Below are positions 6,830 to 63,056 of a stretch of 64,000 nucleotides of DNA, in pieces. Position 1 is the first letter of the stretch. Each line of letters opens with the position of its first letter. Location: positions 58,709-122,708 of the forward strand of contig CAZKSN010000001.1 of assembly GCA_964555585.1 (NCBI GenBank), read 5' to 3'. A program made the position numbers and the translations under genes. This stretch comes from an uncultured Muribaculaceae bacterium. GTDB taxonomy: Bacteria > Bacillota_I > Bacilli_A > RF39 > UBA660. The notes under the pieces are model-generated. The model saw only the letters and a list, made by a program, of their open reading frames with translations, was not told where the DNA came from and searched no databases.

Positions 6830-6868
6830 AACTGAAATTACCTATAAATTATATAATAAATTTATAGA

Positions 6869-8088: not shown

Positions 8089-8177
8089 CTTTCCTCACTT
8101 TCATAAACGCGGGTGACTTCATAACCATTCTAAAATAGTTTATGAAGAAAAAAATGAAAAGTGAGAATTAATGCCTA

Positions 8178-8872: not shown

Positions 8873-8903
8873 TCAAATAAAAAAATATAACACTAGTTAT
8901 ATT
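8873..8903 (-). terminator. rho-independent terminator after efp
   Basis: AATATAAC-ACTA-GTTATATT hairpin, then a U-tract on the minus-strand transcript. Confidence 0.5.
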
Positions 8904-8905
8904 TC

Positions 8906-9463: not shown

Positions 9464-9465
9464 AA

Positions 9466-9636: not shown

Positions 9637-9700
9637 TTTTGCACCTCCTTAAATAACTTTAGTAATTATATCATATTAATTATAATTTTTAAAGTAAATT

Positions 9701-16856: not shown

Positions 16857-18020
16857 TTATTTTGAAATGTTTGATATCTCTATATTTCTTTGAGTTATTT
16901 TATTTTCAATAGCTATTCTTTGTACAATAAATGTCGATATAACAAGATTTATAGTAAAACTTCCTCCATAACTTAAGAAAGGAACTGGAACTCCTGTTAA
17001 TGGTAATAGTGCAAGAATACCACAAAAATTTATTATTAAGTGAGTTAAAATATATATCATTACACCATAGCAAATTATTGAATTTCTTAAATTATAACTA
17101 CTTTTTGAAATTTTAATTATTCTTAATAAAATAAATAAATAACCTAAAATTAATACTATTCCAAATATTACTCCTAATTCTTCAACAGCAATAGGAAAGA
17201 TGAAATCAGTATGAGCTTCTGGTAAATATAAATATTTTTGAGTAGATTTTCCAATTCCTTTACCAAAAAGTCCTCCACCATTCATTGCAATAAATCCATT
17301 ACAAGCTTGATAACCTGTTTCTTCAGTATACCTAGTACAAGGTTCTTTAAAAACAAATCTACTTTTCTGCATATCAGTTAAAAAAGGAGTATCCGTTAAT
17401 ATAAATACTGTAAATACTATTGCAACTGCTCCTGCACCAATTTTCATTATAGTTGCAGCATTATTTTCTCTCATAGGAATACTTAAAAATGTAAAAAAAA
17501 CTATAAAAGCTATTATACTTGCAGTACCTAAATCAGGCTGTAAAGCAATTAAAATAAATATAATAATACTTAATGTTAATGGTATTAAAAATGAATATTT
17601 ACCACTTTTCTTATGTTCCATATCTCCAAAAAAAATACCTAAATATAAAATTAAAGCTATTTTAATAAATTCACTTGGCTGAAAAGAAAATTTTCCAAAA
17701 TCAATCCAACTTTTTGCATTATTAGTAATTTGACCATACATTAGTAGACCTACAAGAATTATAATTAATACTATTAAATAAGGAAACACTAGTTTTTTAT
17801 AATGTTTAGTTGGAAATTTTAAAACAAATATAAATCCTACAGCAAATGCAAATATATAAAATATAAATTGTCTAAAGAAAAAATAATATGGATTTACATC
17901 AAATTTAAGTACTGCAGCTACACTTGAAGCAGATAAAACTAATAATACCCCTATAGCTGAATATATTATTGTAAAAATTAATAATGGTTTATCTAGTTTA
18001 TTAAATATACTATTTTTCAT
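16857..18020 (-). CDS. SEDS-family peptidoglycan glycosyltransferase (FtsW/RodA/SpoVE)
   Basis: ~10 TM helices with SEDS motifs (FQPSEFIKIALILYLG; PDLGTASII). Confidence 0.8.
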   Translation of the reverse strand: MKNSIFNKLDKPLLIFTIIYSAIGVLLVLSASSVAAVLKFDVNPYYFFFRQFIFYIFAFAVGFIFVLKFPTKHYKKLVFPYLIVLIIILVGLLMYGQITNNAKSWIDFGKFSFQPSEFIKIALILYLGIFFGDMEHKKSGKYSFLIPLTLSIIIFILIALQPDLGTASIIAFIVFFTFLSIPMRENNAATIMKIGAGAVAIVFTVFILTDTPFLTDMQKSRFVFKEPCTRYTEETGYQACNGFIAMNGGGLFGKGIGKSTQKYLYLPEAHTDFIFPIAVEELGVIFGIVLILGYLFILLRIIKISKSSYNLRNSIICYGVMIYILTHLIINFCGILALLPLTGVPVPFLSYGGSFTINLVISTFIVQRIAIENKITQRNIEISNISK

Positions 18021-36009: not shown

Positions 36010-37176
36010 TCAATATTTATTCTGCTGTTTGCTTATATTTAATATAATTCCAATAAACAATAAACTTGTCACTAAACTACTTCCTCCATAACTAATGAAT
36101 GGTAAGGTTACTCCGGTAATTGGAAGTATACCTACAACCACCATTAGATTCAATAAAGTTTGAAATATCAACATAAAAGAAAGTCCAAATGATAAATATT
36201 TAGCAAACAAGTCAGAAGTTGATAGACTGATTTTTATACATTTATAAAATATGGTTAAAAATAATATTGAAATCAATAATACTCCTAAAAAACCAAATTC
36301 TTCAGATATTATGGAAAAAATAAAATCTGTCTGAGGTTCAGGTAAATAAAAATGTTTTTGTCTGGAATTTAAAAAACCAAAGCCAAATAAACCTCCAGGT
36401 CCAATGGCATATAATGATTGAATAATTTGAAATCCACTTCCTAAAGGATCTTTCCATGGGTTAATAAATGAAGTGATTCTCTGTAATCTGTATGGTGCAA
36501 TTATAATTAATCCTATGATGCTTAATAATCCTAGTAAACCTAATTTAAAAAATACCTGAAGCTTTGCACCAGTAATAAAAATTAATCCAATTAAAGCACA
36601 AACAATTACCATTCCGGTTCCAAAATCCGGTTCTAACATAATTAATCCAAAGAAAAGAATAATAATGAATAATATTGGAAAAACAAATAACTTAACACTT
36701 CTTTTATCTTCATTATTTCTAGATAAAAATTTAGCAGTGAATATTACTAAACCAAGTTTAGCTATTTCACTTGGTTGTATTCCTAAATTTCCAATTCCAA
36801 ACCAGCTTCTTGAACCATTTCTAATTGAACCTATTCCAGGTATTAGGACAAGCACTAAAAGTAAAAAGCAAACCCCTAAAATGAGATTTGCTTTATTTTT
36901 ATATATATTATAGTTTATTTTTGACGCAATATACATTAGGAATATTCCAATTATCAAAAATATACTTTGACTAAAAACATATTTATATGCATTTTCATAC
37001 TTATACTCTGCCCATATATAACTTGAAGAATAAATCATTATTACTCCAAATATACATAAAAGAATAGTACAGATAAATAAAGTCCTATCAAATTTCACAT
37101 TTAACCCCCTTAGACTTTTTAAATCCAAACTGCGTAATAAATAGCGGCCATTCCAAGCATAAATCCTATTATCCAA
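36010..37176 (-). CDS. SEDS-family protein (SpoVE/FtsW-like) of the division/sporulation cell-wall cluster
   Basis: SEDS motifs (GIQPSEIAKLGLVIFTAKFL; PDFGTGMVI). Immediately downstream of mraY. Confidence 0.75.
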   Translation of the reverse strand: MDNRIYAWNGRYLLRSLDLKSLRGLNVKFDRTLFICTILLCIFGVIMIYSSSYIWAEYKYENAYKYVFSQSIFLIIGIFLMYIASKINYNIYKNKANLILGVCFLLLVLVLIPGIGSIRNGSRSWFGIGNLGIQPSEIAKLGLVIFTAKFLSRNNEDKRSVKLFVFPILFIIILFFGLIMLEPDFGTGMVIVCALIGLIFITGAKLQVFFKLGLLGLLSIIGLIIIAPYRLQRITSFINPWKDPLGSGFQIIQSLYAIGPGGLFGFGFLNSRQKHFYLPEPQTDFIFSIISEEFGFLGVLLISILFLTIFYKCIKISLSTSDLFAKYLSFGLSFMLIFQTLLNLMVVVGILPITGVTLPFISYGGSSLVTSLLFIGIILNISKQQNKY

Positions 37177-38111
37177 AATAATTTTACTATATCTGTCTCC
37201 TGCCAGCCCAGCTTTTCAAAATGATGATGAATAGGCGCCATTAAAAATACTTTCCTTTTAAATTTTCTAATTGCAGTTATCTGTATGATTGCTGATAATG
37301 CCTCAATGACAAATACGCCACCTATAACAGCCAGCAATAATTCATGTCTTGTTAAAATTGCAATTGCTGCAAGTGTTGCTCCAAGAGACAATGAACCGAC
37401 ATCTCCCATAAATACTTTTGCCGGATGAGTGTTAAATACTAAAAATCCTAATACTGAACCAACCAATATAAAGCAGAATATCGCCATTTCTTGATAACCT
37501 TCAACCCATGAGGTACCCCAGGTTATAATACCAAAACTTAAGAAAGCTATTGCAGAAAGTCCTCCTGCCAAGCCATCTAAACCATCTGTTAAATTTACAG
37601 CGTTTGAAGAACCGACTAGTAAGAATAATATAAAGACTCCATAAAACCAACCTAAATTAATTTTAATATTTAATGAAGAAATCCATACAGTAGGATCTCC
37701 TCCTCCTCTCATATGAATATAAAAGAACACTAAAGCGATTATTACCTGAATAATTAGTTTCTGAAGAATTGATAATCCTTTATTATTGCCTTCTTTTATC
37801 TTCTTTAAATCATCCACTAAACCTAAGACTGAATATGATACAAAAACAAATATTACTATCAATAGACTATGTGTAATTTCTAAACTTCCTCTTAAATATA
37901 AAAATATCATTGTTAAAAATGTCGGAACAATAAAGATTAAACCTCCTAAAGTTGGTGTTCCCTGTTTTTCTGAATGTCTGAATTCCAAGAATTTACTAAT
38001 GTTCTGTTTTAGTTTTAATCTTCTTAAAAAAGGTATTAAAAAATAACCTAAAATAACTGAAAGAAAAAATCCAATCATTAACCCTAAAATACTTTTAGCT
38101 AAAATAAGCAT
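37119..38111 (-). CDS. mraY: phospho-N-acetylmuramoyl-pentapeptide transferase
   Basis: MraY signatures NAVNLTDGLDGLAGG and the HHHFE region (PIHHHFEKLGW). Confidence 0.9.
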   Translation of the reverse strand: MLILAKSILGLMIGFFLSVILGYFLIPFLRRLKLKQNISKFLEFRHSEKQGTPTLGGLIFIVPTFLTMIFLYLRGSLEITHSLLIVIFVFVSYSVLGLVDDLKKIKEGNNKGLSILQKLIIQVIIALVFFYIHMRGGGDPTVWISSLNIKINLGWFYGVFILFLLVGSSNAVNLTDGLDGLAGGLSAIAFLSFGIITWGTSWVEGYQEMAIFCFILVGSVLGFLVFNTHPAKVFMGDVGSLSLGATLAAIAILTRHELLLAVIGGVFVIEALSAIIQITAIRKFKRKVFLMAPIHHHFEKLGWQETDIVKLFWIIGFMLGMAAIYYAVWI

Positions 38112-38179
38112 ATCATCACTTCCTATATATTATTATACAAAAAAAATTATATTTTACAAAATAAATACCATTATTAGTG

Positions 38180-40090
38180 TTAATTTAACATTATCTTTAC
38201 AACAGAATTTTCTTTCACTCTTGTTCCAGCTTTTGGAGAAATATCAATAACCTTATCTCCTGTTCCAGAGTATTCTACAGTTAATAATTTTAAAGCTTTT
38301 ACTGCTTCCTTTTTGCTCATATTAATCACATCAGGTATAGTTACATAGTTTTGCTCATACCATCTGTAAACTCTTGGAAGTCCTTCTTTATCCTCTTTTA
38401 AATCATATAAATTAATTATTTCTTTAAATACATTTTTTGCTATTGGAGCAGCTACAGTACCTCCATACTGTGTAACATTTCTAGCATGATCTATTGCAAT
38501 ATAAGTCACATATTCAGGATCATTTGCAGGCATAAAGCCAATAAAAGACAATATATAATTTCCTACCATGTATTGCCCATTAGCTCCAACCTTTTGAGCC
38601 GTTCCTGTTTTACCTCCAACTCTGTAGTTTTCAATATATGCATTTCTCCCTGTTCCATTAGCAACTACACTTTCTAAAACATATTTAACTAAAGAACTTG
38701 TTTCACTGCTGATTACATTTGAAACTTTTAATTTAGGGAATATTTCTTTAATCATCTGATCCGTTTCCGGTTCGCTTATTGAACTTACAATGTAAGGTGT
38801 ATACATATTTCCATCATTAATAATTGCGCTTACTGCCTGAACCTGCTGAATTGCAGTTACTGAAACTCCTTGTCCAAAAGCAGTTGTAGATAATTCTAAA
38901 AGTCCTATTTTATCAGTATCAAATATTATTCCAGTACTTTCTCCGTTTAAATCAACACCGGTTTTTTTTCCAAAGCCCAGTTTATCTATATAGCCGAACA
39001 ATTTTTCTTTTCCAAGTCTCTGTCCAAGAACTACAAAGCCTGGGTTACATGAATTTTCAACAACTTGCAGAAAAGTCTGTAAGCCATGCCCTCCATCTTT
39101 CCAGCAGTGAAGTTTAGCTCCACTTACACTGATACTTCCAGTATCATAATATGTATCTTCAAATACATTTACTACTTTTTCCTCAATTGCCGCCGCAATG
39201 GTTACTATTTTAAATGTTGATCCAGGTTCAAAATTAGACCAGATTGCTAAATTCCTATTAATTATTTCTGTGGAATAATTTTGATAATTTGATGGAGAAA
39301 AATTTGGTCTACTGCTCATTGCCAGTATTTCTCCTGTTTTTGGATTCATTACAATTCCAATTGCACCTTCAGCATTATATTTACTTACTGCATTGGATAA
39401 TTCTCTTTCCAATGATTTTTGAATATCCAAATCTATAGTTAAAGTTATATTCATTCCATCTTGGGGACTTTCATATACTTCAGCTAATTCAAGTTTATTC
39501 CCTTTTCCATCAGAGAAATACTTTATACTTCCATTTACACCGGTTAAATATTTATCATAAAGTAATTCCAATCCACTTAATCCCTGATTATCTATACCAA
39601 CATAACCTATTACATGAGATAGTAGATCATCTTCAGGATAATATCTTTTACTTTCTTTAACCAAATATACTCCATCAAAACCTAAAGAATCTATTTCATC
39701 CGCTATTTCATAACTCAGTCCTCTTCCCTCTGGATGTACTCTTTCTATCGATGTTCTTTTTGATACATGTTTATACATTTCTTCATATGATACTTCTAAT
39801 ATTTTTGCTAATTTTTCAGAAACCAATTCTTTGTTTTTTATTTGATTTGGTATTAATATTAAAGCTGCAGTCGTTACATTTCCAGCTATTAACTTGCCAT
39901 TTCTATCTAAAATCAAACCTCTATTGGCTTGTACAGGTAAATTTCTGCTCCATAAATTTTCTGCTAATTCATGTAACTTATTATATTCTATAACTTGTAT
40001 ATAAAAAACTTTAAAAATTATTAAAAAAAATAGTAGTAATACTATTAGGAATATTCTTTTAATTCTTTTATTTTGTGTGCTTTGAAACAT
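38180..40090 (-). CDS. class B penicillin-binding protein with C-terminal PASTA domain (SpoVD/FtsI/PBP2B-like)
   Basis: Transpeptidase motifs STFK (EPGSTFKIVT), SCN and KTGTAQ. C-terminal PASTA (VTIPDVINMSKKEAVKALKLLTVEYSGTGDKVIDISP). Upstream of mraY. Confidence 0.8.
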   Translation of the reverse strand: MFQSTQNKRIKRIFLIVLLLFFLIIFKVFYIQVIEYNKLHELAENLWSRNLPVQANRGLILDRNGKLIAGNVTTAALILIPNQIKNKELVSEKLAKILEVSYEEMYKHVSKRTSIERVHPEGRGLSYEIADEIDSLGFDGVYLVKESKRYYPEDDLLSHVIGYVGIDNQGLSGLELLYDKYLTGVNGSIKYFSDGKGNKLELAEVYESPQDGMNITLTIDLDIQKSLERELSNAVSKYNAEGAIGIVMNPKTGEILAMSSRPNFSPSNYQNYSTEIINRNLAIWSNFEPGSTFKIVTIAAAIEEKVVNVFEDTYYDTGSISVSGAKLHCWKDGGHGLQTFLQVVENSCNPGFVVLGQRLGKEKLFGYIDKLGFGKKTGVDLNGESTGIIFDTDKIGLLELSTTAFGQGVSVTAIQQVQAVSAIINDGNMYTPYIVSSISEPETDQMIKEIFPKLKVSNVISSETSSLVKYVLESVVANGTGRNAYIENYRVGGKTGTAQKVGANGQYMVGNYILSFIGFMPANDPEYVTYIAIDHARNVTQYGGTVAAPIAKNVFKEIINLYDLKEDKEGLPRVYRWYEQNYVTIPDVINMSKKEAVKALKLLTVEYSGTGDKVIDISPKAGTRVKENSVVKIMLN

Positions 40091-45921: not shown

Positions 45922-46408
45922 TTCTTTCCTCCATAATTATAAAAACAATTAATAAAGATACACCTATTGTTATGAATGTATCACTAATATTAAATACTGC
46001 AAAATTAAAATAACAAAAATCTATAAAATCCCTTACATAGCCTAAAAATATTCTATCAATTAGGTTTCCAAGTAATCCTCCAATCAGAATACTAAAAGAA
46101 TAAAATATTTTTTTATTATTAATATTATTCTTCATTTCATAAATTAAATAAAATAATACAAGCGAAGATACAATTATTAAAAATAAAATATTACCATGCA
46201 AAATTCCAAAAGCGGCTCCAGAATTTTTATATAAAGATAAATTAAGAAAGTTATGTATTATTTCTACACTTTCTCCTTCAATCAAATATTTATTCATTAT
46301 AAACTTTGAAATTTGATCTAAGAACAATATACTAATTATTATTATACTTGCTATTAAATATTTTCTTTTCATATTTATTATAATACACAAATTTGAAGGT
46401 TTATTCAA
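45902..46408 (-). CDS. lspA: lipoprotein signal peptidase II
   Basis: Four TM helices with conserved NSGAAFG and FNISD (catalytic Asp) boxes. Confidence 0.8.
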   Translation of the reverse strand: MNKPSNLCIIINMKRKYLIASIIIISILFLDQISKFIMNKYLIEGESVEIIHNFLNLSLYKNSGAAFGILHGNILFLIIVSSLVLFYLIYEMKNNINNKKIFYSFSILIGGLLGNLIDRIFLGYVRDFIDFCYFNFAVFNISDTFITIGVSLLIVFIIMEERNGSKSK

Positions 46409-46644
46409 GTTAAATCAATTAAAATTACATCTTCACCCATTTTTTTGATTTGATCAAACTTTACTAAAACATCAGTTTCACCATTAAAAAAATTTCTAAA
46501 ATATCTATTCTTTTCTATTATTAAATTTACTAAACTGCCATCGGTAGTATTTATTTCAATATCAATAATTCTACCTATTTTTTTACCATTATTTAAATTG
46601 ACAATATCTTTTCTTTGTAAATCAGATAACTTCATATTTACCAC
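46405..46644 (-). CDS. ylmC: YlmC/YmxH-family PRC-barrel sporulation protein
   Basis: LSDLQRKDIVNLNNGKKIGRIIDIEINTTDGSLVNLII parallels B. subtilis YlmC (LSELSGKEIVDLNKGERLG...DLEIDAETGKIQALLI). Downstream of sigG, as in Bacillus. Confidence 0.6.
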   Translation of the reverse strand: MVNMKLSDLQRKDIVNLNNGKKIGRIIDIEINTTDGSLVNLIIEKNRYFRNFFNGETDVLVKFDQIKKMGEDVILIDLT

Positions 46645-46667: not shown

Positions 46668-47441
46668 TTACTTTATAAACCTTTTTAAACTTTTAATTGC
46701 ATTTTTTTCCAATCTAGAAACTTGTGCTTGAGATATGCCAACTTCAACTGCTATTTCCATTTGAGTTTTACCATATATATATCTCCATAATAAAATATTT
46801 CTTTCTCTCTCTTTTATTTTATATAAAGCTTTCCTCATACTAATTAAATCATCTAATTCCTTTTTTTCTTTTACATCCTCTATTTGATCTAATAAGTAAA
46901 TTGTATCTCCACCATCATTATAAATAGGCTCAAATATACTCATAGGTTGTTTTAAAGACATAGTTGCATTAGACACTTCATATTCAGTAATTCCTAAATA
47001 TTTAGATATTTCCTCAGTAGTTGGTTCTTTCCCATATTCATTTAAATAATCATCTCTGTATTTTATAATTTTATAAGCATTATCTTTAATTCCTCTACTT
47101 ATCCTAATTGAATTATTATCTCTTATATATCTTTTTATTTCACCTAATATCATTGGAACAGCATATGTTGAAAATTTTACTTGATGCTTTAAATCAAAAT
47201 TATCAATTGCTTTAATTAATCCAACTACCCCTATTTGAAATAAATCATCCATATTTTCAGCACGATTTTGAAACTTCTTTAATATACTTAATATAAGTCT
47301 TAAATTTCCATTAATTAATTGTTCTTTAGCCTCAATATTTCCAGCTTGATACTGTTTAAATAATTCTTCCATTTCTTTTGATTTTATAACAGGAATTTTA
47401 CTTGTATTTAATCCGGTAATTTCTACTTTATTTTTTGACAT
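46668..47441 (-). CDS. sigG: sporulation sigma factor sigma-G
   Basis: MSKNKVEITGLNTSKIPVIKSKEMEELF parallels B. subtilis SigG MSRNKVEICGVDTSKLPVLKNEEMRKLF. Sigma-70 regions 2-4 present. AAAGGAG RBS before this ATG (the track's longer ORF begins inside the RBS). Confidence 0.8.
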   Translation of the reverse strand: MSKNKVEITGLNTSKIPVIKSKEMEELFKQYQAGNIEAKEQLINGNLRLILSILKKFQNRAENMDDLFQIGVVGLIKAIDNFDLKHQVKFSTYAVPMILGEIKRYIRDNNSIRISRGIKDNAYKIIKYRDDYLNEYGKEPTTEEISKYLGITEYEVSNATMSLKQPMSIFEPIYNDGGDTIYLLDQIEDVKEKKELDDLISMRKALYKIKERERNILLWRYIYGKTQMEIAVEVGISQAQVSRLEKNAIKSLKRFIK

Positions 47442-47496
47442 ATAATAAAAAACTCCTTTCATATCTATATTGATATAATAGGAATTTTTTTATTCA

Positions 47497-47745
47497 TTAT
47501 TCTTCAGGTACTTCTACATTTTCTAGTATTGTCTTTATAATTTCCGCATCTTTCACTATTTTAATTGATTCTTGCCCTTCATACTTCAATTGTTCCAATA
47601 CTACTAAGTCTTCCTTTAAATTTTCTCTATCTTTCTCTAGTTCGAAAGCAAGATAGAAAGTTCTTCCCTGATATAAGATATGTCTATAAATTGCATATTC
47701 TCTGCCATCTTGAAGAATAACTATTTTATTTGTATTATTTTCCAT
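47497..47745 (-). CDS. small protein, DUF1292-like
   Basis: 82 aa. KIVILQDGREYAIYRHILYQGRTFYLAFEL resembles the DUF1292 family pattern. Confidence 0.35.
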   Translation of the reverse strand: MENNTNKIVILQDGREYAIYRHILYQGRTFYLAFELEKDRENLKEDLVVLEQLKYEGQESIKIVKDAEIIKTILENVEVPEE

Positions 47746-47776: not shown

Positions 47777-50293
47777 TTACCTTCCTCCAATAGAGGGTTC
47801 ATCTTCACCTGAAATTACCTGAGTACCGTCTGTTCCATTAATTAAATCTTCATAATCTTCAAATGCTTTATCTGCTGCACCTCCTGCATTAGCAGCTTCG
47901 CCAGGAGTTATTACTTCATCTTCAATTAATTCGGGTATATCTGCCTCAGTTACTTCATCACCTGTAGATGGTAAAGGTTCAGTTACTGCTCTTGCATTTT
48001 CAATTTCAGCTTCAATTTTAGCATAATCAATATTTGTAATATTTATTGTACCATTAGTATTTTGAGATACAGTAGCCACATTGCTTATTTTTAAAGTATC
48101 TCCGTCTAAATCCATATATGCACTTCCTGTGCCATCAACATAACCTCTAACTCCTGCAACTGTTACAATAACAGATTCACTTGTAGGAATTTCAGATATC
48201 TCTGGATTTGTTATTGTTTGATCTGGTGTAACAATATATTGACCTGGTGTTACTACTGGTTGTTCTGGCTCCTCAGGCTGTTCTGGCTCTTCAGGATTTT
48301 CTGGTTGCTCAGGTTCTTCTGGCTGATCTGGTTGCTGTGGTCTGTCAGGTCTATCTGGTCTTTCTGGTGTTGAAGGAGTTACTATTTCTACTTCTCCCTC
48401 TTCTTCTGGAACTTCTGTAGTAATCGGCAAATCATCTTTTGGCTGTTCTTCAATAGTTTGAGTTTGTGCTGGAGGTATATTATCAGGAACTACTTGAGTC
48501 TTTGGCTTAATAAAAGTTAAACCCACTACCGCAGTCGCTGCAGCTAACGCAATATAAAATATTGCTCGTAATTTTTTATTATTTTTTAATTTATCAAATA
48601 ATTTTTTTGCACCATCTACAAATCTAGCAATTGGTGTGGGCTTTTCTTCTGGATCATCATCTTTAGGCTCAAGTTCTTTAGCTTTTTTCTTAGCTTTTTC
48701 CTGATCTTCTAATGACAATCCTGCAAGAACTCTTTTGTATATTTCTTTTTGTTCTTCAGTTAACTCATTATCTTTTTCTTCACTCTTTGGTAATTTATTT
48801 ATTATTTGATTAAATCTATCTGCTATAGAAAGTTTTAAATATTGTTCTCTTAATTTTAAAGCATTTAATTCCCTTTTTTTATTTGAAACTATATTTTCTT
48901 CAAATCTTCTATCAGATCTATTTATTTTTGATTTTAAATTAATATTTTTAATTAATTCTTCAAATCTTTCTCTTTTACTAACTCTTGATTCGATTCCTAA
49001 ATCAATATTTTTATTTTCTGCATCTAAAGCTGTATTATTATGTTTTAATTCATTAATATTTGACTTAATAGCTTTATTTTCTGTTTTTAAATCAGTTAAT
49101 GATTTCTTTTGCTTGTTTGTTAAGTTTTCTTTAGATTCAAGTTTTTTAATTTCATTATCGTTTAAAGTTAATTTTTCTTTTGCAGACTTAATTGTTGCAT
49201 TATTATTTTTTATTTGAACATTATTTTGAACTTTCTTTTGTTCTGCATTATAATCTTCTACATCAAGATCTCTAATATATTTATTACATCTTGCTTTTTG
49301 AGATTCTTCTATTTCATATTGATTAATTAATTCTCCATCTGGATTTTTTGGATCTTTTATTAATCCTAAATTTTTAATATTTTCTTCATGTTCTTTTATT
49401 TCTAATTCTAGCTGCTCTTTCATAGATGCAATTTCTTCTATTTCTTTTTCACGAGATTCCTGATCAATCTTGGTTATACTTAAAGCTGCTCTTAGAGGTT
49501 CTAATCTTCTTCTAACCTCAGCTTCATCTATTAAATCTCTTTCAAAATCTCTAATAATATATTGCATTTCTAAAATAGGATCAATGGTTAAATCAATATA
49601 TGCCTGTTGTAAAGCTGCTAATTTATTTTTTAATTCATTATTTCTTCTAATATCATCAAGATAAAAGTTATCAGAATTTTCTCTTCTGAAATTATCTAAA
49701 GCTTCTTTTAAAGCCTCAACTTCTGCTCTACGATTGTTTAGTGTTTCTTCAAATCTTCTTAAAGTTACTTTTTTCTTTTCAAGATTTGCGTTCTTTCTTC
49801 TTATTCTATCTTCTATTTTAGCTATATTTTCTTCTCTTTTTATTCTATTTAATCTGATACCATCAAGTCTTACTCTATAAAACCTAGCTGTTTCAGGATT
49901 AGATGAATTTGCTTTTGATTCATAATCTCTAATAGTTTGATCATATTTTGCATTAATTTCTGATTCTCTTTCCAATAAAGCTTTATCTTTTTCAATATCA
50001 CTTTCATAACCATTAATTGAAGATTGAAGAGATTCAAATTTTTCTTCACTTTTTGCTAAGTTTTCTTCAGCTTCTTCCAATTCAAGTTCTTTCATACTTA
50101 AATCAAAAGTAGGAGTTTCATCAATTCCATCTAATTTATCTTGAAGAGAATGTAATTCTTCTTCAGTACTTGAAATTAATTTACTAATTTCAAAAGACTG
50201 AGTCATTCTTTGATATGCATCCTTTTTAGCAACATCTGATGGTATTGATATCACTAAATTATTTAATTCCATTAATAATTCATCTTTATTCAT
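47777..50293 (-). CDS. large bitopic protein: ~570-aa cytoplasmic coiled-coil region, one TM, PE-repeat linker and C-terminal extracellular domain
   Basis: Long Glu/Lys/Asn/Leu-rich heptad-like region. TM LRAIFYIALAAATAVVGLTFI. Then PDRPDRPQQPDQPEEPEQPENPEEPEQPEEPEQP and a Gly/Thr/Val-rich C-terminal domain. Confidence 0.6.
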   Translation of the reverse strand: MNKDELLMELNNLVISIPSDVAKKDAYQRMTQSFEISKLISSTEEELHSLQDKLDGIDETPTFDLSMKELELEEAEENLAKSEEKFESLQSSINGYESDIEKDKALLERESEINAKYDQTIRDYESKANSSNPETARFYRVRLDGIRLNRIKREENIAKIEDRIRRKNANLEKKKVTLRRFEETLNNRRAEVEALKEALDNFRRENSDNFYLDDIRRNNELKNKLAALQQAYIDLTIDPILEMQYIIRDFERDLIDEAEVRRRLEPLRAALSITKIDQESREKEIEEIASMKEQLELEIKEHEENIKNLGLIKDPKNPDGELINQYEIEESQKARCNKYIRDLDVEDYNAEQKKVQNNVQIKNNNATIKSAKEKLTLNDNEIKKLESKENLTNKQKKSLTDLKTENKAIKSNINELKHNNTALDAENKNIDLGIESRVSKRERFEELIKNINLKSKINRSDRRFEENIVSNKKRELNALKLREQYLKLSIADRFNQIINKLPKSEEKDNELTEEQKEIYKRVLAGLSLEDQEKAKKKAKELEPKDDDPEEKPTPIARFVDGAKKLFDKLKNNKKLRAIFYIALAAATAVVGLTFIKPKTQVVPDNIPPAQTQTIEEQPKDDLPITTEVPEEEGEVEIVTPSTPERPDRPDRPQQPDQPEEPEQPENPEEPEQPEEPEQPVVTPGQYIVTPDQTITNPEISEIPTSESVIVTVAGVRGYVDGTGSAYMDLDGDTLKISNVATVSQNTNGTINITNIDYAKIEAEIENARAVTEPLPSTGDEVTEADIPELIEDEVITPGEAANAGGAADKAFEDYEDLINGTDGTQVISGEDEPSIGGR
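48255..48366 (-). repeat. in-frame tandem nucleotide repeats encoding (P-E-E/Q/N-P-E-Q)n linker
   Basis: Plus-strand ttctggctcctcagg / ttctggctcttcagg / ttctggttgctcagg / ttctggctgatctgg: ~18-nt units inside the 838-aa ORF. Confidence 0.6.
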
Positions 50294-50298
50294 AATTT

Positions 50299-52008
50299 CT
50301 ACTCCTTATTCCTGTAAAATAACTTTAATGCGTATTTTATATCACCACTTGCATTTATGTCTGATAATGTATTTACAGGATATCCCAATTCTTTAAATTT
50401 ACTGATCATTTCAGATTCCTGTTGATAATTTGTAAATATGCTTAACCAGTTTTCTTCTGAAATACTGTCTACATTCTGTAATTTCACTTTCTGTTTTGAT
50501 TGTATTTCCCTATATGAGGAACTCTTAGGTTTTGTACTTGACCAGTCTGTCCATGAAGTCCATCTGTAATTAGTGGTTCTTGTCGCATTTTCATCCGGAG
50601 CTTCCACTGAATATCCACTTACCTGTCCGGATACTAATTTGTACCATTTATATGCTGTGGTTTCAGTTGTCATATCCTTTAATGCGCCAGTAACCGGAGC
50701 TGTTTTATAAAATACCTTTTCATTTGTTACATTGCTTTGTCCGCTTGGATAATAACTTCTTATCTCATCAGTAAATCTGTACCATTGATATACAGTTATT
50801 GATACAGTTTTACAAATATCAGATCCTCCAGTACATGGAGTTGAAGTAAAGCTTGACCAAGCACTGTAGGTTCCACAAGCTGAATTATCTGCTTTTAATG
50901 TACCACTTTCACATCTATAACAAGTTGATGTTTCTGATGTTTCAGTCAATCCATTATCACAAGTATAAAAATCATCAACATAAATTGTATGAGTTGGATT
51001 ATTTATATTTTCACTACAAGTAACATATGAAGTTACATTGTTTGGATCTGTTGCACTTGCACATTCCCACATATGAGTTGAACTTGTTGTAGTTGGGGTT
51101 CCAGTTGTAGTCCAGGTTCTTGTAGTATATCTTGTATACTGTATTCCATTTGCATAATAATTGAATTCATCGTTTGGTTGAGTCGCACTATAAAGCCTGT
51201 CTCCATTTTCATCTTCCCAATATACTCTTTCATCTCCACCGGTTGCAGTATACCATTTGGCAACAGTAGTAGCATTGTCATATTTATCATAACCAGTCTT
51301 TGGTGATGAAGTGTAATATTCTTTTACATCTGAGGCTTTTGTTTTATCTCCAGTACTTGTATAGTAATATTTCTCATTTAAATTCCAAATATATTCTTTA
51401 TCTCTATAAATATAATAGTTTGTTATTGATAGTGTTTTATAATTTGTATAAGGAATGTCTTCTTTCCAATATTCTTCAACTTTTCCTAAATTTGCATTTT
51501 CTAAATCTAAATACTTTCCTAAAAATGTAAATTTAATGTCAGATTCATCAGCGATTAAATCTGCTTCTGTTCCTTCCTTCCATTCTCCATAATAATCATC
51601 TGATTTATAGTCATCACAAACCAATAAAGGTACCCATTGTAATTTTTTACTTTCAAGCATACATACTTTTACATATGTTGTTTCATCATCACAATTACTA
51701 TATTTGTCAGGATTTAATAAGCCAAAATCAGATAGTATTTTTAATGAAACTGTAGAACATTCACCAGCTGAAGTTGGCAGTAAATATTCATTGTTTTCAT
51801 AATATTCTTTTCCAGCTTCCAGTAACGTTGTCTCTAATTCATTTTTTGGTTCTTCAGTTTTATTACATCCTTTAAACAGAAAAACAATTACAATTACTCC
51901 AAGAATAACTAATAATGCAATTCCTATTCTTTTTAAATTCATTAATTTTCTTTCTCTATTTTCTTCTTCTGCTGAATAATATTCATCATCATTATAATCT
52001 TTATTCAA
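50299..52008 (-). CDS. membrane-anchored protein with large Cys/Tyr/Thr/Trp-rich ectodomain
   Basis: TTG start with AGGAGG RBS 8 nt upstream. Short acidic cytoplasmic N-terminus, one TM (IGIALLVILGVIVIVFLF). Ectodomain with many Cys and YxT/WT repeats. No recognisable domain. Six nt upstream of the 838-aa gene. Confidence 0.55.
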   Translation of the reverse strand: MNKDYNDDEYYSAEEENRERKLMNLKRIGIALLVILGVIVIVFLFKGCNKTEEPKNELETTLLEAGKEYYENNEYLLPTSAGECSTVSLKILSDFGLLNPDKYSNCDDETTYVKVCMLESKKLQWVPLLVCDDYKSDDYYGEWKEGTEADLIADESDIKFTFLGKYLDLENANLGKVEEYWKEDIPYTNYKTLSITNYYIYRDKEYIWNLNEKYYYTSTGDKTKASDVKEYYTSSPKTGYDKYDNATTVAKWYTATGGDERVYWEDENGDRLYSATQPNDEFNYYANGIQYTRYTTRTWTTTGTPTTTSSTHMWECASATDPNNVTSYVTCSENINNPTHTIYVDDFYTCDNGLTETSETSTCYRCESGTLKADNSACGTYSAWSSFTSTPCTGGSDICKTVSITVYQWYRFTDEIRSYYPSGQSNVTNEKVFYKTAPVTGALKDMTTETTAYKWYKLVSGQVSGYSVEAPDENATRTTNYRWTSWTDWSSTKPKSSSYREIQSKQKVKLQNVDSISEENWLSIFTNYQQESEMISKFKELGYPVNTLSDINASGDIKYALKLFYRNKE

Positions 52009-52090
52009 ATTAAAAGACCTCCTATTTATACTAAGAACATTGTATCATTATTCAACATAAAATGCAATTGATAAGTAAAAAAAAGTGATA

Positions 52091-52774
52091 TTAAACTTTC
52101 ATTAAATTTTTAAGTTTTTTTATCACTTTTTTCTCAATTCTGGAAATATAAGACTGACTTATTTTTAACTTGTCTGCAACTTCTTTTTGAGTATATTCTT
52201 TTCTGTTTAACAATCCATATCTCATAATAATTATTTCTTTATCTCTTTCATTTAATTTATTTATTTCTTCCAACAGAATACTTTTATCAACAGAGTTTTC
52301 ATATTCTTTTTCCACTATATTAATATCTGTGCCAAGAACATCTTCCAGATGAAGCTCATTACCTTCACCATCCAAGTTAATGGAATCTTCAAAACTCACT
52401 TCCACTTTTTTTCTTTTATTCTTTCTTAAAAACATTAAAATCTCATTATCTATGCATCTTGAAGCATAAGTTGCCAGTTTAATATTTTTATCCAATTTAT
52501 ATGTTGTAACTCCCTTTATTAGTCCAATAGTGCCTATGCTCACTAAATCTTCCAAATCATATGAAGTATTATCATACTTCTTTGCTAAAAATACAACTAA
52601 TCTTAGATTATGTTCAATTAAATAATTTCTTGCATTAATATCTCCGTTATTATATGCCTTAACATAATATTCTTCCTTCTTTTTAGTTAATGGGGGAGGC
52701 AGTATATCAGTACTTCCTAAATAAAATATATTATTTTTATATTTAAATATCTTCCTTAATAATTCTTTAATCAC
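52091..52774 (-). CDS. sigE: sporulation sigma factor pro-sigma-E
   Basis: FYLGSTDILPPPLTKKKEE...NGDINARNYLIEHNLRLVVFLAKKY...IKLATYASRCIDNEILMFLR...ISQSYISRIEKK closely parallels B. subtilis pro-SigE (YIGGSEALPPPLSKDEE...ERNLRLVVYIARKF...KLATYASRCIENEILMYLR). Confidence 0.85.
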   Translation of the reverse strand: MIKELLRKIFKYKNNIFYLGSTDILPPPLTKKKEEYYVKAYNNGDINARNYLIEHNLRLVVFLAKKYDNTSYDLEDLVSIGTIGLIKGVTTYKLDKNIKLATYASRCIDNEILMFLRKNKRKKVEVSFEDSINLDGEGNELHLEDVLGTDINIVEKEYENSVDKSILLEEINKLNERDKEIIIMRYGLLNRKEYTQKEVADKLKISQSYISRIEKKVIKKLKNLMKV

Positions 52775-53567
52775 TATTTCCCTCCAATAATAAATTATTT
52801 AATATACAGTTTACACCATCCATCTTAAAGTCATTTGAAGAAATTCCTACTACTATATTGTTCATTAAACCGATACCTTTTATGTATACTTTTTTAGGTA
52901 TAATACATTTCAATATACCATGAGAATCAACAGTATCATAAGGAACCAATATGAAGTTTTCCTGAGTTATTTCCTTTATTAATTTTTTATCATTCACTAT
53001 TATTACAGCTCTTTGCTTATACGGTTCTGTTAAATTATTGGCTGTATCCAAATAACCGTTTAAATTATATATTTTTCCGTTTTTTAAATATAAATCCACT
53101 TTATAGTTTAATGAATATACATTTTTAAATCTTTTTGCCTGCTTTGTATAGATATATAAAATAAGAGGACTCACTGTCAATAAAAATATATAATTTATAC
53201 TTAATCCTTTATTGTAGAAAACTAAACCAATGTTTCTATAACTAAATTCTACATTTAAATAATATAAAAAACCTCCAAGAATTATGCTTACAGAATAAAA
53301 ATAAAGTAAATTATTTATTAAATATTTTATATCTTTATAACCAAATGTAACAAGAATTATTATCACACTTAAAATTAATTTATAAAAAAATAAAATCAGA
53401 TTGCTTACATCAATAAATAATACAAGTATACTTAAACTGCCAATTATACTTGCCAGTATTATTCTTCTCATTTTTATATTTCTCTTTAATATTATACATA
53501 CTGTCAACAGAATTAAGAAATCTATTAAAAAGTTTAAAAGAAACAATAGATCCAAATATATAGTCAT
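52767..53567 (-). CDS. spoIIGA: sigma-E processing peptidase SpoIIGA
   Basis: MTIYLDLLFLLNFLIDFLILLTVCIILKR parallels B. subtilis SpoIIGA MKIYLDVIWLLNFCFDALLLLLTAFILKR. Five TM helices plus a C-terminal protease domain. Overlaps sigE by 8 nt. Confidence 0.75.
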   Translation of the reverse strand: MTIYLDLLFLLNFLIDFLILLTVCIILKRNIKMRRIILASIIGSLSILVLFIDVSNLILFFYKLILSVIIILVTFGYKDIKYLINNLLYFYSVSIILGGFLYYLNVEFSYRNIGLVFYNKGLSINYIFLLTVSPLILYIYTKQAKRFKNVYSLNYKVDLYLKNGKIYNLNGYLDTANNLTEPYKQRAVIIVNDKKLIKEITQENFILVPYDTVDSHGILKCIIPKKVYIKGIGLMNNIVVGISSNDFKMDGVNCILNNLLLEGNSD

Positions 53568-53622
53568 CTCTTCACCTTCTAACAGTATAAAAAAAACGAC
53601 ATAAGTATTTTGTCGTTTTATA

Positions 53623-54429
53623 TTATAATTCCATTTTTAATTGAAATGGTTCTTCAGGTTTGCTCTTTGGATCAAAAAGTACATTTAATGATTCCAAGTC
53701 TTTTAGTGTATCTTCTAACTTTTGATTCTCCTCCTGTATTTTATTTAATCTGTCTACTTCTTCTTTTAGAGAAATCCCAAAAGTTCTGAAGCGCTTATAT
53801 TGTATAGTTTTACCATCTCCGGAATGCAACTGAAGAATTAAATTATAAACTCCACTTTTAAAATCTGTTTTTCCATTTTCAGGTATTTTATTATAGGACA
53901 ACAGCATTTCATAAAGGTCATCTCTCATATCCTTCATTGAATCTATCTTATTTTGTCTGCAGAATTTAAATATGTTAAATTGAGGATTTTCTAATAACGG
54001 AAGTAACTTTTCATACAAAGATTCCGCGTCTTTTACATAATCAAATTCTCCAGGTTTTAACAAATCTAAAAACATAATTTGACCTTTATATTTATAAGCG
54101 ATACTAAAACTAGATAAATGTTCTACTAACTGATTTAATTCTGCAGGTTTAACTGTCTGATATCTATTCTTAACAGCTTCATCTATTGTTTTCAGAGTTG
54201 TTAGTCTTGAATCTATCTTATATCTGATGAAAGATAAATTAACCTGACCATACCTTTTTTTATGTCTCTTGAAATTACTGTATACATATTGCCTTTTTAC
54301 TGAATTTGACATTTCTTCAATCAGAGAATCTTTTATTTTTGATGCCTCAGAATCAGATTCACATGCAATTTTATGTTTTTCTCCCTGCTTTTGAACAATA
54401 ATATACCTTTTTTCACCTAAATCATTCAT
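53623..54429 (-). CDS. hypothetical soluble protein
   Basis: 268-aa ORF from MNDLGEKRY (GGGGG RBS 8 nt upstream). No TM. No recognisable motif. Confidence 0.4.
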   Translation of the reverse strand: MNDLGEKRYIIVQKQGEKHKIACESDSEASKIKDSLIEEMSNSVKRQYVYSNFKRHKKRYGQVNLSFIRYKIDSRLTTLKTIDEAVKNRYQTVKPAELNQLVEHLSSFSIAYKYKGQIMFLDLLKPGEFDYVKDAESLYEKLLPLLENPQFNIFKFCRQNKIDSMKDMRDDLYEMLLSYNKIPENGKTDFKSGVYNLILQLHSGDGKTIQYKRFRTFGISLKEEVDRLNKIQEENQKLEDTLKDLESLNVLFDPKSKPEEPFQLKMEL

Positions 54430-54521
54430 ACTAAAACCCCCATTAACAAGCATATATTATATCAAAATAATGTTTAAAAGTCAAAAAAGCACTACATTTC
54501 TATAGTGTTTTTTAATTTTAT

Positions 54522-57500
54522 TTATTCTGCTTTAGATAAGAATTTTTCTTCTAAAATTTCACTTGCATCATCACTTAAGAATTCATTTTCTAATATATAT
54601 TCTATATCAGAATATTCTTTAGCACCAGTTCCTGCTGGTATTAATTTACCAATTATTACATTTTCTTTTAGTCCATGCAATGTATCAATTTTACCTCTAA
54701 CAGAAGCATCTGTTAAGATTCTTGTTGTTTCCTGGAATGACGCAGCTGATAGGAATGAATCTGTTTCCAGAGATGCCTTGGTAATTCCCAAAAGCATTGG
54801 TTTTCCGGTAGCTGGAACCTTACCTTCTAAGATAACAGGTTTATTTCCTTCTGCAAATTCATTTATTGAAACCGAAGTACCTTCAAAGAATGAAGTATCT
54901 CCCGGATCAACAATTTTTATTTTAGATAGCATTCTTCTTACTACCAGTTCAATATGTTTATCTGAAACATCAACACCCTGAGATTTGTAAACCTTCTGAA
55001 TTTCTTTCAATATATATTCCTGAACTGTTATCGGATCGGTTACTGCCAATAATTCTTTAGGAGCAATAGATCCTTCAGTTAATGCCTGACCAGCAACAAC
55101 TGCATCTTTTAATTCTACAGTTAATCTTGTATTATACATAGTAATATGTTCTCTGGTTTCAACATCATTTGTAATATATATTTTATATTTACCTTTTTCT
55201 TCAGTGATTTTAGTTACTTTACCGTTTATTTCAGCAATAGTAGCCTTTGCCTTTGGAGTTCTAGCTTCAAATAACTCTTCAACTCTTGGAAGACCTTGAG
55301 TAATATCTCCTTCACCTGCAACACCACCGGTATGGAACGTTCTCATTGTAAGCTGTGTACCAGGTTCTCCAATACTTTGAGCTGCCATGATACCAACTGC
55401 TTCACCAATTTCAACAACATTACCTGTTGCAAGGTTATTTCCATAGCACTTGCGACAAATTCCGTTTTTAGTTTTACAGGTTAGAGTACTCTTTATCTCT
55501 AATTTTGTTATTCCAGCTTTTACTATTTTATCAACAACAGTTCCGGTGATTAATTCATTTTTATCAAGAATTAATTCCTTTGTTTCCGGATGAACAATTT
55601 TTTGATTAGTAAATCTTCCCAAAATTCTTTCCTTAAAGCTTTCAAGTACAGCTCCACTCTTTTCATCTATGAAGGCACTTACCTCAAGTCCTTGAATTGT
55701 TCCACAATCATCTTCTCTAACGATTAAATCTTGTACAACATCAACAAGTCTACGAGTTAAGTATCCTGCATCTGCAGTCTTTAAGGCTGTATCCGCAGTA
55801 CCTTTTCTACTACCGTGAGTACTTAGGAAGAATTCCTGAACATCCAGACCTTCTTTAAATGAAGCCAGGATTGGAATTTCAACGCTTTCTCCATTAGGCT
55901 TAGCCATGATTCCACGAATACCGGCCAACTGAGTCAACTGACTGAACTTTCCTCTGGCTCCTGAATTGATAATCATATACAGAGGATTATCAGCATTGGA
56001 TTTTGCCAATACTTCCAAATCTTTCTGAACCTCATCTTTTGCAGTTGCCCATAAGTTTATTACTTTTGAATGTCTTTCATCATCAGTAATTAAACCTCTT
56101 TTATATTGTTTCTGCAACTGATCTACAGTCTTCTGAGTTTCCTCTATAATTTTTGGTTTATTTAAACTTGATTCAACATCACTTAAAGCAAATGTTATAC
56201 CAGATCTTGTAGAATACTTAAATCCTAAATCCTTTAATTTATCCAGCATAATTGAAGTTTCTGTTGTTTTATATCTTTTATACACCTGAGCAATAATAGA
56301 ACTTAAGTTTTTATTACTGAATGCATTTATTAAAGGCTTCTTAGCAACTTCCTCTGTCAAATTCATTCCTCTATCAATAAAGAATTTACTTGGAGTCAGA
56401 TTTTCTATATTTTCCTGTGAAGGTTCATTCACATATGGATAAGTATCAGGTAAAATTTCATTAAATATCAATTTACCTGGTGTAGTTACTAAATATTTTT
56501 CTTTTTGTTCTTCAGTAAATATTTTATATTTAAAACTTTTTGTAGGTATGCAAATTCTTGTATGAAGAGTAATGTCACGTCTTTCATAAGCCATTAGAGC
56601 TTCATTGGAATTCTTATATACCTTTCCTTCATTTGGAAGTCCTGCCTCTTCTATAGTTAGGTAATAGTTGCCTAATACCATATCTTGAGAAGGTGCAACA
56701 ATCGGCATTCCATCTTTAGGATTGAGAATGTTTCCTGCTCCCAGCATTAATATTCTGGCTTCAGCTTGTGCTTCCTCAGAAAGAGGTACATGCACTGCCA
56801 TTTGATCTCCATCAAAGTCTGCATTAAATCCTGTACAAACAAGTGGATGAAGTCTCAACGCCTTACCTCCAACAAGTTTTGGTTCAAATGCCTGAATACC
56901 AAGCCTATGAAGTGTAGGTGCACGGTTTAACAATACCGGATGTTCTCTAATAACATCTTCCACGATATCCCATACTCTCTCATCCTGAGAATCTATTATT
57001 TTTTTAGCCCCTTTGATATTATGAGCTAAATCTCTTTTTGTAATTTCATGTATTACATGCGGTTTAAACAATTCCAAAGCCATTTCCTTAGGAATACCAC
57101 ATTGATGCATTTTTAAATCAGGTCCGACTACGATAACACTACGTCCACTATAGTCAACACGCTTACCTAATAAGTTTTGACGGAAACGTCCCTGTTTTCC
57201 TTTTAACATACTTGACAAACTCTTAAGAGGTCTGTTTCCTACACCCTGAACACTACGTCCACGTCTGCCGTTGTCAATCAAGGCATCTACTGCTTCTTGA
57301 AGCATACGTTTTTCATTTTGAACAATAATTGTAGGAGCTCCAAGTTCTATTAATTTCTTTAAACGATTATTTCTATTAATTATTCTTCTGTATAAGTCAT
57401 TTAAATCACTTGTAGCAAATCTTCCTCCGGGAAGTTGAATCATAGGTCTCAATTCCGGTGGAATAACAGGAAGAGCACGTATAATCATCCAATGAGGTTT

Positions 57501-58163
57501 ATTTCCACTGTCAATAAATGAATTAATACAGTCTAATCTCTTAATTAATCTGATTTTCTTCTGACCCTGTGATTTTTCTACTTCATTTTTTAAATTTTCT
57601 GATTCCTTTTCAAGATCCACTTCACTTAGTAATTTTTCAATTGCTTCAGCTCCCATGCCAACAGTAAAACCATTGCCATATTTCTCATAATAAAGTCTAT
57701 ACTCTTTATCTGATAATGTTTGTTTTTTCTCTAAAGGCGCAATTCCAGGATCCAATACTACATAACTTACAAAGTATAGTACCTCTTCCAAATCTCTTGG
57801 AGACATATCTAATATTTGTCCGATTTTTGGAGGTACTCCTTTTGCAAACCAAATGTGACTAACAGGAGAGGCAAGCTCTATATGTCCCATTCTTTCACGT
57901 CTTACCTTAGCACGAGTTACCTCTACTCCACATCTGTCACAAATGACATTTTTATATCTTAATCTTTTAAATTTACCGCAAGAACATTCATAGTCCTTAG
58001 TAGGTCCAAATATTTTTTCACAAAATAATCCGTCTCTTTCAGGTTTTAATGTTCTATAGTTTATGGTTTCAGGTTTTTTAACTTCACCATAAGACAATGA
58101 GCGTATTTTTTCTGGGGATGCTATTCCAATTCTTATTCCTTCGAATAAATTAACTTCCATCAT
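54522..58163 (-). CDS. rpoC: DNA-directed RNA polymerase subunit beta'
   Basis: Zn-finger [23 protein letters not shown], catalytic [12 protein letters not shown], trigger loop/bridge helix regions. 1213 aa. Confidence 0.95.
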
Positions 58164-62912: not shown

Positions 62913-63056
62913 TAACTCATCCTCCTTTTATTATTTTAAAAAAGCTTCCCAGACGGGAAGCTTACAAAATTATATTTTATAAGTTCCTCGGTAGGATTTA
63001 CTTACCACCTACTGTCTTTGGTACTCACTTCATTAACAATTATTATATTATAGTTT
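62913..63056 (-). ncRNA. ribosomal protein L10 leader (autoregulatory 5'-UTR of rplJL) with terminator-like hairpin
   Basis: 144-nt untranslated region between rplA and rplJ containing AAGCTTCCC-GTCT-GGGAAGCTT, followed by a T-run directly before the rplJ RBS. Confidence 0.45.

Follow-up and report, generated by a model that had tools for sequence, protein, structure and literature searches.

What does it mean when genes of no nameable family lie inside a sporulation sigma factor cluster? This question is raised by a 64,000-nucleotide (nt) stretch of DNA from an uncultured Muribaculaceae bacterium (GTDB lineage Bacilli_A, RF39, UBA660; GenBank assembly GCA_964555585.1, contig CAZKSN010000001.1, positions 58,709 to 122,708), the whole of which is referred to below as the window. 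On its minus strand, the genes follow one another in the order spoIIGA, sigE, A (569 amino acids, aa), B (838 aa), C (82 aa), sigG, ylmC, lspA, and rluD, where A, B, and C are our designations for three open reading frames (ORFs). A first-pass annotation had described A and B as two co-oriented, nearly abutting genes between sigE and sigG and had proposed, from this position, that they are co-transcribed with sigE and act at the septum or in sporulation. The arrangement is as described: A (50299..52008) and B (47777..50293) are 5 nt apart, with the ribosome binding site (RBS) of B, AAGGAG, located within the last codons of A, and relatives show a 1-nt overlap of A with B; C follows at 47497..47745. 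The proposed function fared worse. The evidence tilts toward A-B-C being an autonomous, probably vegetatively expressed, envelope-spanning complex, to which we assign no role.

More than 130 homologs of protein A were found, all unnamed or annotated as “hypothetical” and all originating from gut metagenomes and metagenome-assembled genomes (MAGs), the latter labeled as Bacilli, Mollicutes, Mycoplasmatota, or Clostridium sp. With a 7-sequence alignment of A as a query, 41 loci were found when one genome was scanned per species. The trio is kept in no fewer than 40 species, all of them uncultured gut Bacilli of low GC, and one large ORF of 492 to 1139 aa spans the gap between A and C in every locus that holds both (36 of 36). 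A and B are thus always paired, in fact as a trio with C, and they are lineage-specific and uncharacterized, as had been supposed. The literature search turned up no paper describing the organism group or any gene that this clade carries between sigE and sigG.

In ~33 species-level loci, the order is spoIIGA-sigE-A-B-C-sigG-ylmC-lspA-rluD. A subfamily with a shorter A (486 to 493 aa) keeps the A-B-C order 3′ of rnr-smpB and 5′ of ysxC/der. In locus L006, valS precedes the trio, and a GGDEF gene and then ftsI-mraY-ftsW lie on its other side; in L038, it lies between htrA and the gene of a P-type adenosine triphosphatase (ATPase). Gene order and the architecture of B and C stay the same across all four genomic contexts. 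Since the smpB, valS, and htrA sites are used besides the sigE/sigG site, bringing the known positions to at least four, the cassette is a unit that changed its place, and no integrase, repeat, or compositional signals of a mobile element were seen at it. A location between sigE and sigG therefore characterizes most carriers but not all of them. Sporulation genes are present in every carrier whose neighborhood could be judged (spoIIGA/sigE/sigG, or spoIVA and spoVIF near locus L048, which belongs to the group with the shorter A beside smpB, where they lie 5 to 8 kb downstream of the trio and make this lineage a likely spore-former too). Hence, the trio does occur at loci unrelated to the sigma cluster, and all the judged carriers fit the expectation that it is confined to spore-formers, with no non-sporulating relative found to carry it.

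Some related loci contain interrupted genes. In L036 (CP091739.1, a 1.53-Mb MAG chromosome), spoIIGA, sigE, A, sigG, lspA, and rluD are each split into several ORFs, which looks like the result of homopolymer sequencing errors rather than pseudogene formation. B is split as well in L006, L032, L037, and L004.

To see how the cassette may be expressed, intergenic regions were compared across loci; promoters reported here are consensus matches backed by conservation. Among 45 loci, 36 have a TTGnnn-17/18-TGnTAnnnT element 40 to 70 nt before the start of A. The window has this element too; there it reads TTGCAT-17-TGaTACAAT (52039..52067, minus strand) and is predicted to be a sigma-A–type extended −10 promoter of A-B-C. 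The element is near-consensus (TTGAAA-17-TGnTATAAT) where the cassette follows smpB, and it is also present at loci nowhere near sigE. In the alignment across loci, no sigma-E, sigma-F, sigma-G, or sigma-K pattern and no Spo0A box is conserved 5′ of A, whereas the same approach does recover a sigma-F/G motif 5′ of sigG and a 0A box 5′ of spoIIGA. Upstream of position 52008, where a search for sigma-E– or sigma-F–type promoters had been suggested, the predicted element is of the sigma-A type. A sigma-E reading of the window −10 (GATACAAT) was considered and rejected, because relatives have TG-n-TAAAAT at this place and a TTG −35 at a distance of 17 to 18 nt.

The signals that precede the cassette in spoIIG were compared in the same way. 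In relatives, the region 5′ of spoIIGA contains a perfect TTCGACA Spo0A box within a hairpin, followed by a T-run and a TATAAT-like −10. The window versions are degenerate: the spoIIG promoter region (53584..53617, minus strand) carries a hairpin with Spo0A-box–like AACGACA / TGTCGTT, a T-run, and a TATACT −10. In most relatives, a 12–base pair (bp) AU-rich hairpin with a T-run is found 3′ of sigE, with folding energies of −8.5 to −8.7 kcal/mol in L001 and L016. A terminator-like hairpin and T-run are also present 3′ of the sigE stop codon in the window (52077..52099, minus strand); this hairpin is weak (−2 kcal/mol, z of 0.3), and both in the window and in its closest relative, L004, it is no better than shuffled sequence. 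With the cassette’s own sigma-A–type promoter in 36 of 45 loci and a terminator after sigE in most relatives, the proposal of co-transcription with sigE, and of a septum or sporulation role read from position, finds no support.

Two further features of the region 5′ of A were observed. The leader between the predicted −10 and the RBS of A contains a conserved motif, TAGTATATGACATAAAAGGAATTGGAGG (L001 7960-7990; also in L014, L016, L027, L040, and many other relatives), which corresponds to no Rfam family and to no sporulation promoter pattern and is not conserved in the window. Rfam, PHROGs, and PADLOC searches returned nothing relevant, and riboregulator, phage, and defense readings were rejected on these grounds. 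Locus L010 differs in having a ~7-kb insert of type VII secretion genes that separates sigE from A (2850-10001), with a YukD-like protein, an FHA/FtsK-type EssC, and WXG100 proteins recognized by eye; one copy of the sigma-A–type promoter precedes this insert, and another precedes A.

At the other end of the cassette, sigG appears to be insulated. The consensus of sigma-F/G promoters is GHATR-18-CATxHTA. Of 31 distinct regions 5′ of sigG, 26 contain a matching GHATR-18-CAnnnTA promoter; the window version, GAATA-18-CAATATA (47466..47495, minus strand; predicted), overlaps the 3′ end of C. A hairpin of 11 to 17 bp followed by a U-run pairs with the sigG RBS in 29 of 31 relatives. The window hairpin (47447..47490, minus strand) has a folding energy of −17.2 kcal/mol (z of −4.4) and pairs with the RBS GAAAGGAG (47460-47453). 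Its 5′ arm overlaps the −10, upstream of the likely transcription start, and so a transcript from the sigG promoter would lack this arm. Judged from sequence, the hairpin would terminate the upstream operon and would silence sigG on read-through RNA.

A similar arrangement is known from Bacillus subtilis, where transcripts from the spoIIG promoter are documented to continue into the next gene, a large hairpin blocks translation of such read-through transcripts, and the sigma-F/G consensus has been shown (PMC5942855). The two loci are alike in having a Spo0A-box promoter before spoIIGA, a sigma-F/G promoter before sigG, and a hairpin that pairs with the sigG RBS only on transcripts coming from upstream (PMC5942855). 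They differ in that 4.5 kb with an independently promoted operon splits sigE from sigG here and in that the hairpin, with its 11 to 17 bp and U-run, looks like the A-B-C operon terminator as well. It is also much stronger than the 5-bp RBS hairpin described for B. subtilis.

Protein A starts with TTG (52008-52006), preceded by AGGAGG 9 nt upstream (52023-52018), as had been annotated, and this start agrees with the N termini of homologs. The N terminus of 27 residues (MNKDYNDDEYYSAEEENRERKLMNLKR) is short, as reported earlier, but is of mixed acidic and basic character rather than just acidic. It is followed by a transmembrane (TM) helix, the single hydrophobic segment of the protein; the charge distribution favors an N-in topology. 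The ectodomain is rich in Thr (12.9%), Tyr (9.4%), Trp (2.9%), and Cys (2.3%), again in agreement with the first description. It is 35 to 45% identical across genera, and the A alignment has 16 invariant columns, 7 of which are Cys. An AlphaFold2 model built on a 45-sequence alignment is confident but elongated (pLDDT of 87.5, pTM of 0.51). It comprises the TM helix (~28-45, within a helix at 13-48), a short flexible tether after Cys48, a helix at 55-72 with a small sheet, long β hairpins, a Cys-rich insert (316-399), and a small C-terminal α/β domain (521-566). Long β-hairpin modules at ~183-262 and ~396-468 represent an internal duplication (hhalign, 97.5%), and the elongated β-rich region has no match among solved structures.

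None of the three proteins has a match beyond noise in Pfam, NCBIfam, PHROGs, or PADLOC; the earlier statement that the two large ones belong to no nameable family thus stands. A profile search with A against 1.84 billion representatives retrieved ~67 clusters at E ≤ 1e-30, for the most part full-length or fragmentary members of the A family, and ~1000 proteins that match only residues ~20-140 of A. Several of these head-only matches (P0224, P0243, P0244, P0250, and P0263) have the N_methyl prepilin motif, and others have surface Ig-like domains. The A profile matches pilin-like proteins with E of ~1e-11 to 1e-13. The head-like domain corresponds to residues 57-136, which align with N_methyl pilins over 80 columns, outside the TM helix, at 31% identity (hhalign, 97.4%; E of 9.6e-12). 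A itself has no N_methyl (PF07963) match at E ≤ 0.1, and the family consensus is without the Gly-Phe...Glu5 prepilin motif. Neither in the window nor in related loci do pilus assembly genes (ATPase, PilC-like platform protein, prepilin peptidase) occur within 10 kb of the cassette. On homology grounds, A is a pilin-type head placed on what appears to be a permanent anchor, and the remainder of its ectodomain is new.

Cys48 of A (window 51865-51867), at the outer end of the TM helix, is present in 44 of 45 sequences within the motif [LIVFM]-[K/R]-[G/S/A]-C, which precedes the low-complexity tether. The classic lipobox [LVI][ASTVI][GAS]C is matched by 4 of 45 A sequences, with K or R being usual at −2. 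The pattern is lipobox-like but noncanonical and does not support A as a classic lipoprotein. An interchain disulfide or acylation at Cys48 is conceivable. K-G/S-C directly after the TM helix was also seen in 3 of 33 B orthologs. Separately, proteins of 584 to 613 aa that share with A only the pilin-like head and carry a surface Ig-like domain are encoded in L043 (5836-16114), L044 (315-10252), and L042 (9624-15288). Their clusters, which look Tad-like, include a sortase-like protein, a ~1000-aa protein, DUF5411, RcpC/CpaB, and a T2SSE ATPase.

For protein B, the ORF, the model, and the charge distribution point to the architecture that had been outlined before: ~540 residues of long helices, one TM helix (573-593, with a charge of +6 on its N side, favoring an N-in topology), and a disordered linker (594-705; 22% Pro, 19% Glu). 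The linker is followed by a small β domain of six short strands (708-753) and by helices extending to residue 818. The extracellular domain of ~200 aa attributed to B exists as an outer region of ~245 residues, of which only ~65 to 110 are predicted to fold. The B model, which was built on two sequences, has an overall pLDDT of 66, but over residues 1-540, it contains helices of up to 75 residues with local pLDDT of 85 to 95, and the cytoplasmic part (~1-540) is predicted to be an antiparallel coiled coil. The sequence is poorly conserved in orthologs, while the plan is constant: a charged helical N-terminal part whose length varies from ~300 to 820 aa, a juxtamembrane motif that is basic and contains Trp, a single hydrophobic segment, a Pro/Glu/Thr/Asp linker of low complexity, and ~110 C-terminal residues with a few conserved motifs. 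A homolog search with full-length B returned only P0121, with low-complexity words dominating the match, and a search with the C-terminal domains of 23 B orthologs returned nothing at E ≤ 1e-3.

The A ectodomain and C are well kept across the clade, whereas the cytoplasmic part of B is variable. Protein C, recognized by its ORF and ortholog conservation (mean column identity of 53%), is without a predicted TM segment or signal sequence. Its earlier designation as DUF1292-like is weakly supported: the window protein has no Pfam match even at E ≤ 10, sub-threshold DUF1292 matches were obtained for 9 of 24 orthologs (best E of 1.6e-4), and no related solved structure was found. We therefore treat this similarity as a lead, not a finding; no function of DUF1292 was found in the literature.

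Our results can be brought together in the following scheme. A-B-C would form an operon separate from the spoIIG and sigG transcription units and driven by its own sigma-A–type extended −10 promoter, with expression probably taking place in growing cells. In the window genome, read-through from the Spo0A-dependent spoIIG promoter may add to this expression. In one lineage, the operon would have settled between sigE and sigG. The sigG gene would be insulated from upstream transcription by its own sigma-F/G promoter and by the strong hairpin and U-run, which would either terminate upstream transcripts or pair with the sigG RBS on read-through RNA. At the protein level, A is probably an N-in anchor with a type IV pilin–like head that is not processed as a pilin, continued by an elongated disulfide-capable β rod. 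B would extend from a long cytoplasmic antiparallel coiled coil through one membrane crossing and a disordered Pro/Glu linker out to a small β domain, and C would be a small cytoplasmic partner. The existence of the trio, the architectures of its proteins, the conservation of promoter and hairpin, and the changing place of the cassette in the genome are results of the comparison; from them, we infer that A, B, and C bind one another and that the complex acts as a cell envelope scaffold in division, shape, or a surface structure, rather than as a sporulation-specific device. A scaffold is preferred over a plain adhesin because the ectodomain rod is conserved, the cytoplasmic coiled coil is long and varies in length, and the small cytoplasmic partner is conserved too. 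The neighboring division and wall genes are a weak hint as to function. Likewise, the location between sigE and sigG argues only weakly for a sporulation role, and the cassette is probably tied to the sporulation sigma cascade by place, not by regulation.

Several observations weigh against this scheme. The A-B-C promoters are consensus matches, for which the support is conservation. Since the terminator-like hairpin of sigE in the window does not fold better than shuffled sequence, co-transcription with sigE is plausible there. Every carrier that could be judged has sporulation genes. Last, no homolog has a known function, and the envelope scaffold is argued from architecture.

Could A and B instead be a system dedicated to the septum or to engulfment during sporulation, expressed together with spoIIGA-sigE from the promoter that Spo0A activates or via an unrecognized sporulation promoter? 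A sporulation-linked role keeps some probability, since transcription could plausibly run on from spoIIG (the hairpin after sigE is weak in the window and L004, and B. subtilis is a documented case of read-through into the next gene; PMC5942855), the sigE/sigG position is stable in ~33 species-level genomes, and no carrier without sporulation genes was found; GerM-like and SpoVE-type proteins are also encoded in the window. However, the conserved sigma-A–type promoter of A is found at loci not adjoining sigE, too, and no sigma-E, sigma-F/G, sigma-K, or 0A-box motif is conserved 5′ of A, while the 0A box of spoIIGA and the sigma-F/G promoter of sigG are easily visible in the same alignments. 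Moreover, most relatives have the 12-bp terminator hairpin after sigE, and in other lineages the cassette follows smpB, valS, or htrA. We therefore regard this system as unlikely. A broader version appears improbable to us: a trans-envelope apparatus, not recognized before, restricted to small-genome spore-forming gut Bacilli and located at the division or sporulation septum, in which an unprocessed pilin-derived A, a new β-rod type, would be coupled to the cytoplasm via the B coiled coil and C, with expression boosted by read-through from the Spo0A-dependent spoIIG promoter when sporulation sets in and the stable sigE/sigG position being functional, not accidental.

Another explanation, which we also hold to be unlikely, would assign A to the cell surface or to a pilus (as an adhesin, wall-spanning fibril, or type IV/Tad-like pilus accessory), with B and C serving as its anchor or export helpers and with a role in host or surface interaction, not in division. 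The homology of the A head to N_methyl pilin-like proteins would fit, as would the paralog-like proteins with the same head and Bact_surface_Ig-like domains encoded beside a sortase-like protein, RcpC/CpaB, and a T2SSE ATPase; an elongated β rod and a Pro/Glu-rich linker are typical of wall-spanning surface proteins. Yet A has no prepilin cleavage/methylation motif and begins with a 27-residue N terminus, and no pilus assembly genes adjoin the cassette in any context. In addition, the cross-genus identity of its ectodomain and the invariant columns are unlike those of fast-evolving adhesins, and the large cytoplasmic coiled coil and the conserved cytoplasmic C are hard to fit with a simple adhesin. 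As to whether the ORFs are chance frames or remnants of mobile or phage elements, B does have weak matches to a phage tape-measure family (E of 2.6e-4) and to PD-T4-6 (E of 1.3e-3), as is frequent for coiled coils. Conservation effectively refutes this reading: there are more than 130 A homologs, the trio is kept in at least 40 species, and the fold of A is predicted with high confidence. Integrase, repeat, and composition signals are lacking, and the local rise in G+C (0.33-0.38 versus ~0.25) tracks Pro/Glu/Thr-rich coding.

The proposed envelope-spanning complex was compared with known systems. Type IV pilins and pseudopilins of Firmicutes (PF07963 N_methyl with large C-terminal parts) share with A a hydrophobic α1 helix followed by a homologous globular head. 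Unlike them, A has no G/FTLxE prepilin peptidase motif and carries its charged 27-residue N terminus instead of a short leader; the other 430 residues of A match nothing, and no assembly ATPase, platform protein, or peptidase is encoded nearby. MapZ/LocZ of streptococci consists of a cytoplasmic N-terminal domain, one TM helix, a flexible extracellular linker, and a small extracellular domain, and B is alike in topology. However, B has no sequence or family match to MapZ, its cytoplasmic part is a 300- to 820-aa coiled coil, and, to our knowledge, streptococcal MapZ is not encoded with A-like or C-like partners. EzrA, like B, has a long helical cytoplasmic domain on a single TM helix, but in EzrA this helix is N-terminal and there is no outer domain; B has no EzrA Pfam match, and its TM helix is at 573-593. 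In Clostridioides difficile, MldA-MldB-MldC is a lineage-restricted, division-site trio of a bitopic coiled-coil protein, MldA, which ends in a SPOR domain, and small cytoplasmic proteins. The A-B-C cassette is likewise a lineage-restricted three-gene cluster with a bitopic coiled-coil protein, although B lacks a SPOR domain, A has no counterpart, and no sequence relationship was found. Last, C resembles DUF1292 (PF06949; B. subtilis YrzB type) in size and strand-rich pattern, but ruvX and ireB, the usual neighbors of DUF1292 genes, are absent beside it.

Should A, B, and C indeed assemble into a complex, this would represent an envelope-spanning machine of a new kind, present in a large group of gut Bacilli that are uncultured and little understood. 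Among its parts would be a fold without a solved relative and a pilin head turned into a permanent membrane anchor. The locus offers sporulation biology a natural experiment, in that a probably constitutive operon has long persisted between the two sigma genes, apparently because the strong hairpin, which combines a terminator with RBS pairing, shields sigG. The locus also calls for caution, since function should not be read from position alone within a sporulation sigma cluster.

The genes flanking the cassette were assigned as follows (all on the minus strand). The pro–sigma-E processing protease gene spoIIGA (52767..53567) matches Pfam PF03419 Peptidase_U4 (1.6e-42) and TIGR02854 (1.1e-36). 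The top NCBIfam match of sigE (52091..52774) is SigE (1.6e-91, 306 bits; equivalog cutoff of 339), and that of sigG (46668..47441) is SigG (3.9e-108, 361 bits; cutoff of 372); both are clearly the top-scoring models, yet both are slightly under the strict equivalog cutoffs. The start of sigG was revised: the ATG is most likely at 47441 (MSKNK...) and not at the mechanical ORF start, 47462 (MKGVFYYMSKNK), given the RBS position and orthologs beginning with MAKNK or MSKNK 3′ of the same RBS. It is followed by ylmC/ymxH (46405..46644), which encodes a PRC-barrel sporulation protein (TIGR02888, 1.4e-21). The G+C content of the region is ~25% and rises locally to 33 to 38% in parts of A and B because of Thr/Pro/Glu-rich coding stretches.

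Directly 5′ of spoIIGA, the window and its relatives encode a 276- to 284-aa protein without a family match (53623-54453 on the minus strand, 276 aa, in the window; L001 5591-6445; L004 5918-6739, with 33% identity in L004). The hairpin at the 3′ end of this gene contains the Spo0A box of the spoIIG promoter. Directly 5′ of the 276-aa gene and the spoIIG cluster is rpoC (54522-58163), with an L10 leader further on (62928-63039); relatives have rpmB and murB at this place, and the upstream boundary of the cluster is thus not conserved. Elsewhere, the window codes for a GerM-like (Germane) protein, ComEC, CdaA with a YbbR-domain protein, and two bPBP/SEDS pairs, one of which is PBP2B(PASTA)-MraY-FtsW/SpoVE (6869-7834, 10202-12235, 14052-16118, 16857-18020, and 36010-40090 for these genes together). 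Such gene content fits an organism that has a cell wall and probably forms spores, even though its G+C is low and its relatives have small genomes. The B. subtilis map reads ftsAZ-bpr-spoIIGA-sigE-sigG-ylmA...ylmC...sepF...divIVA-ileS-lspA-rluD, and compared with it, the gene order around the cassette represents the compressed tail of the division and cell wall cluster.

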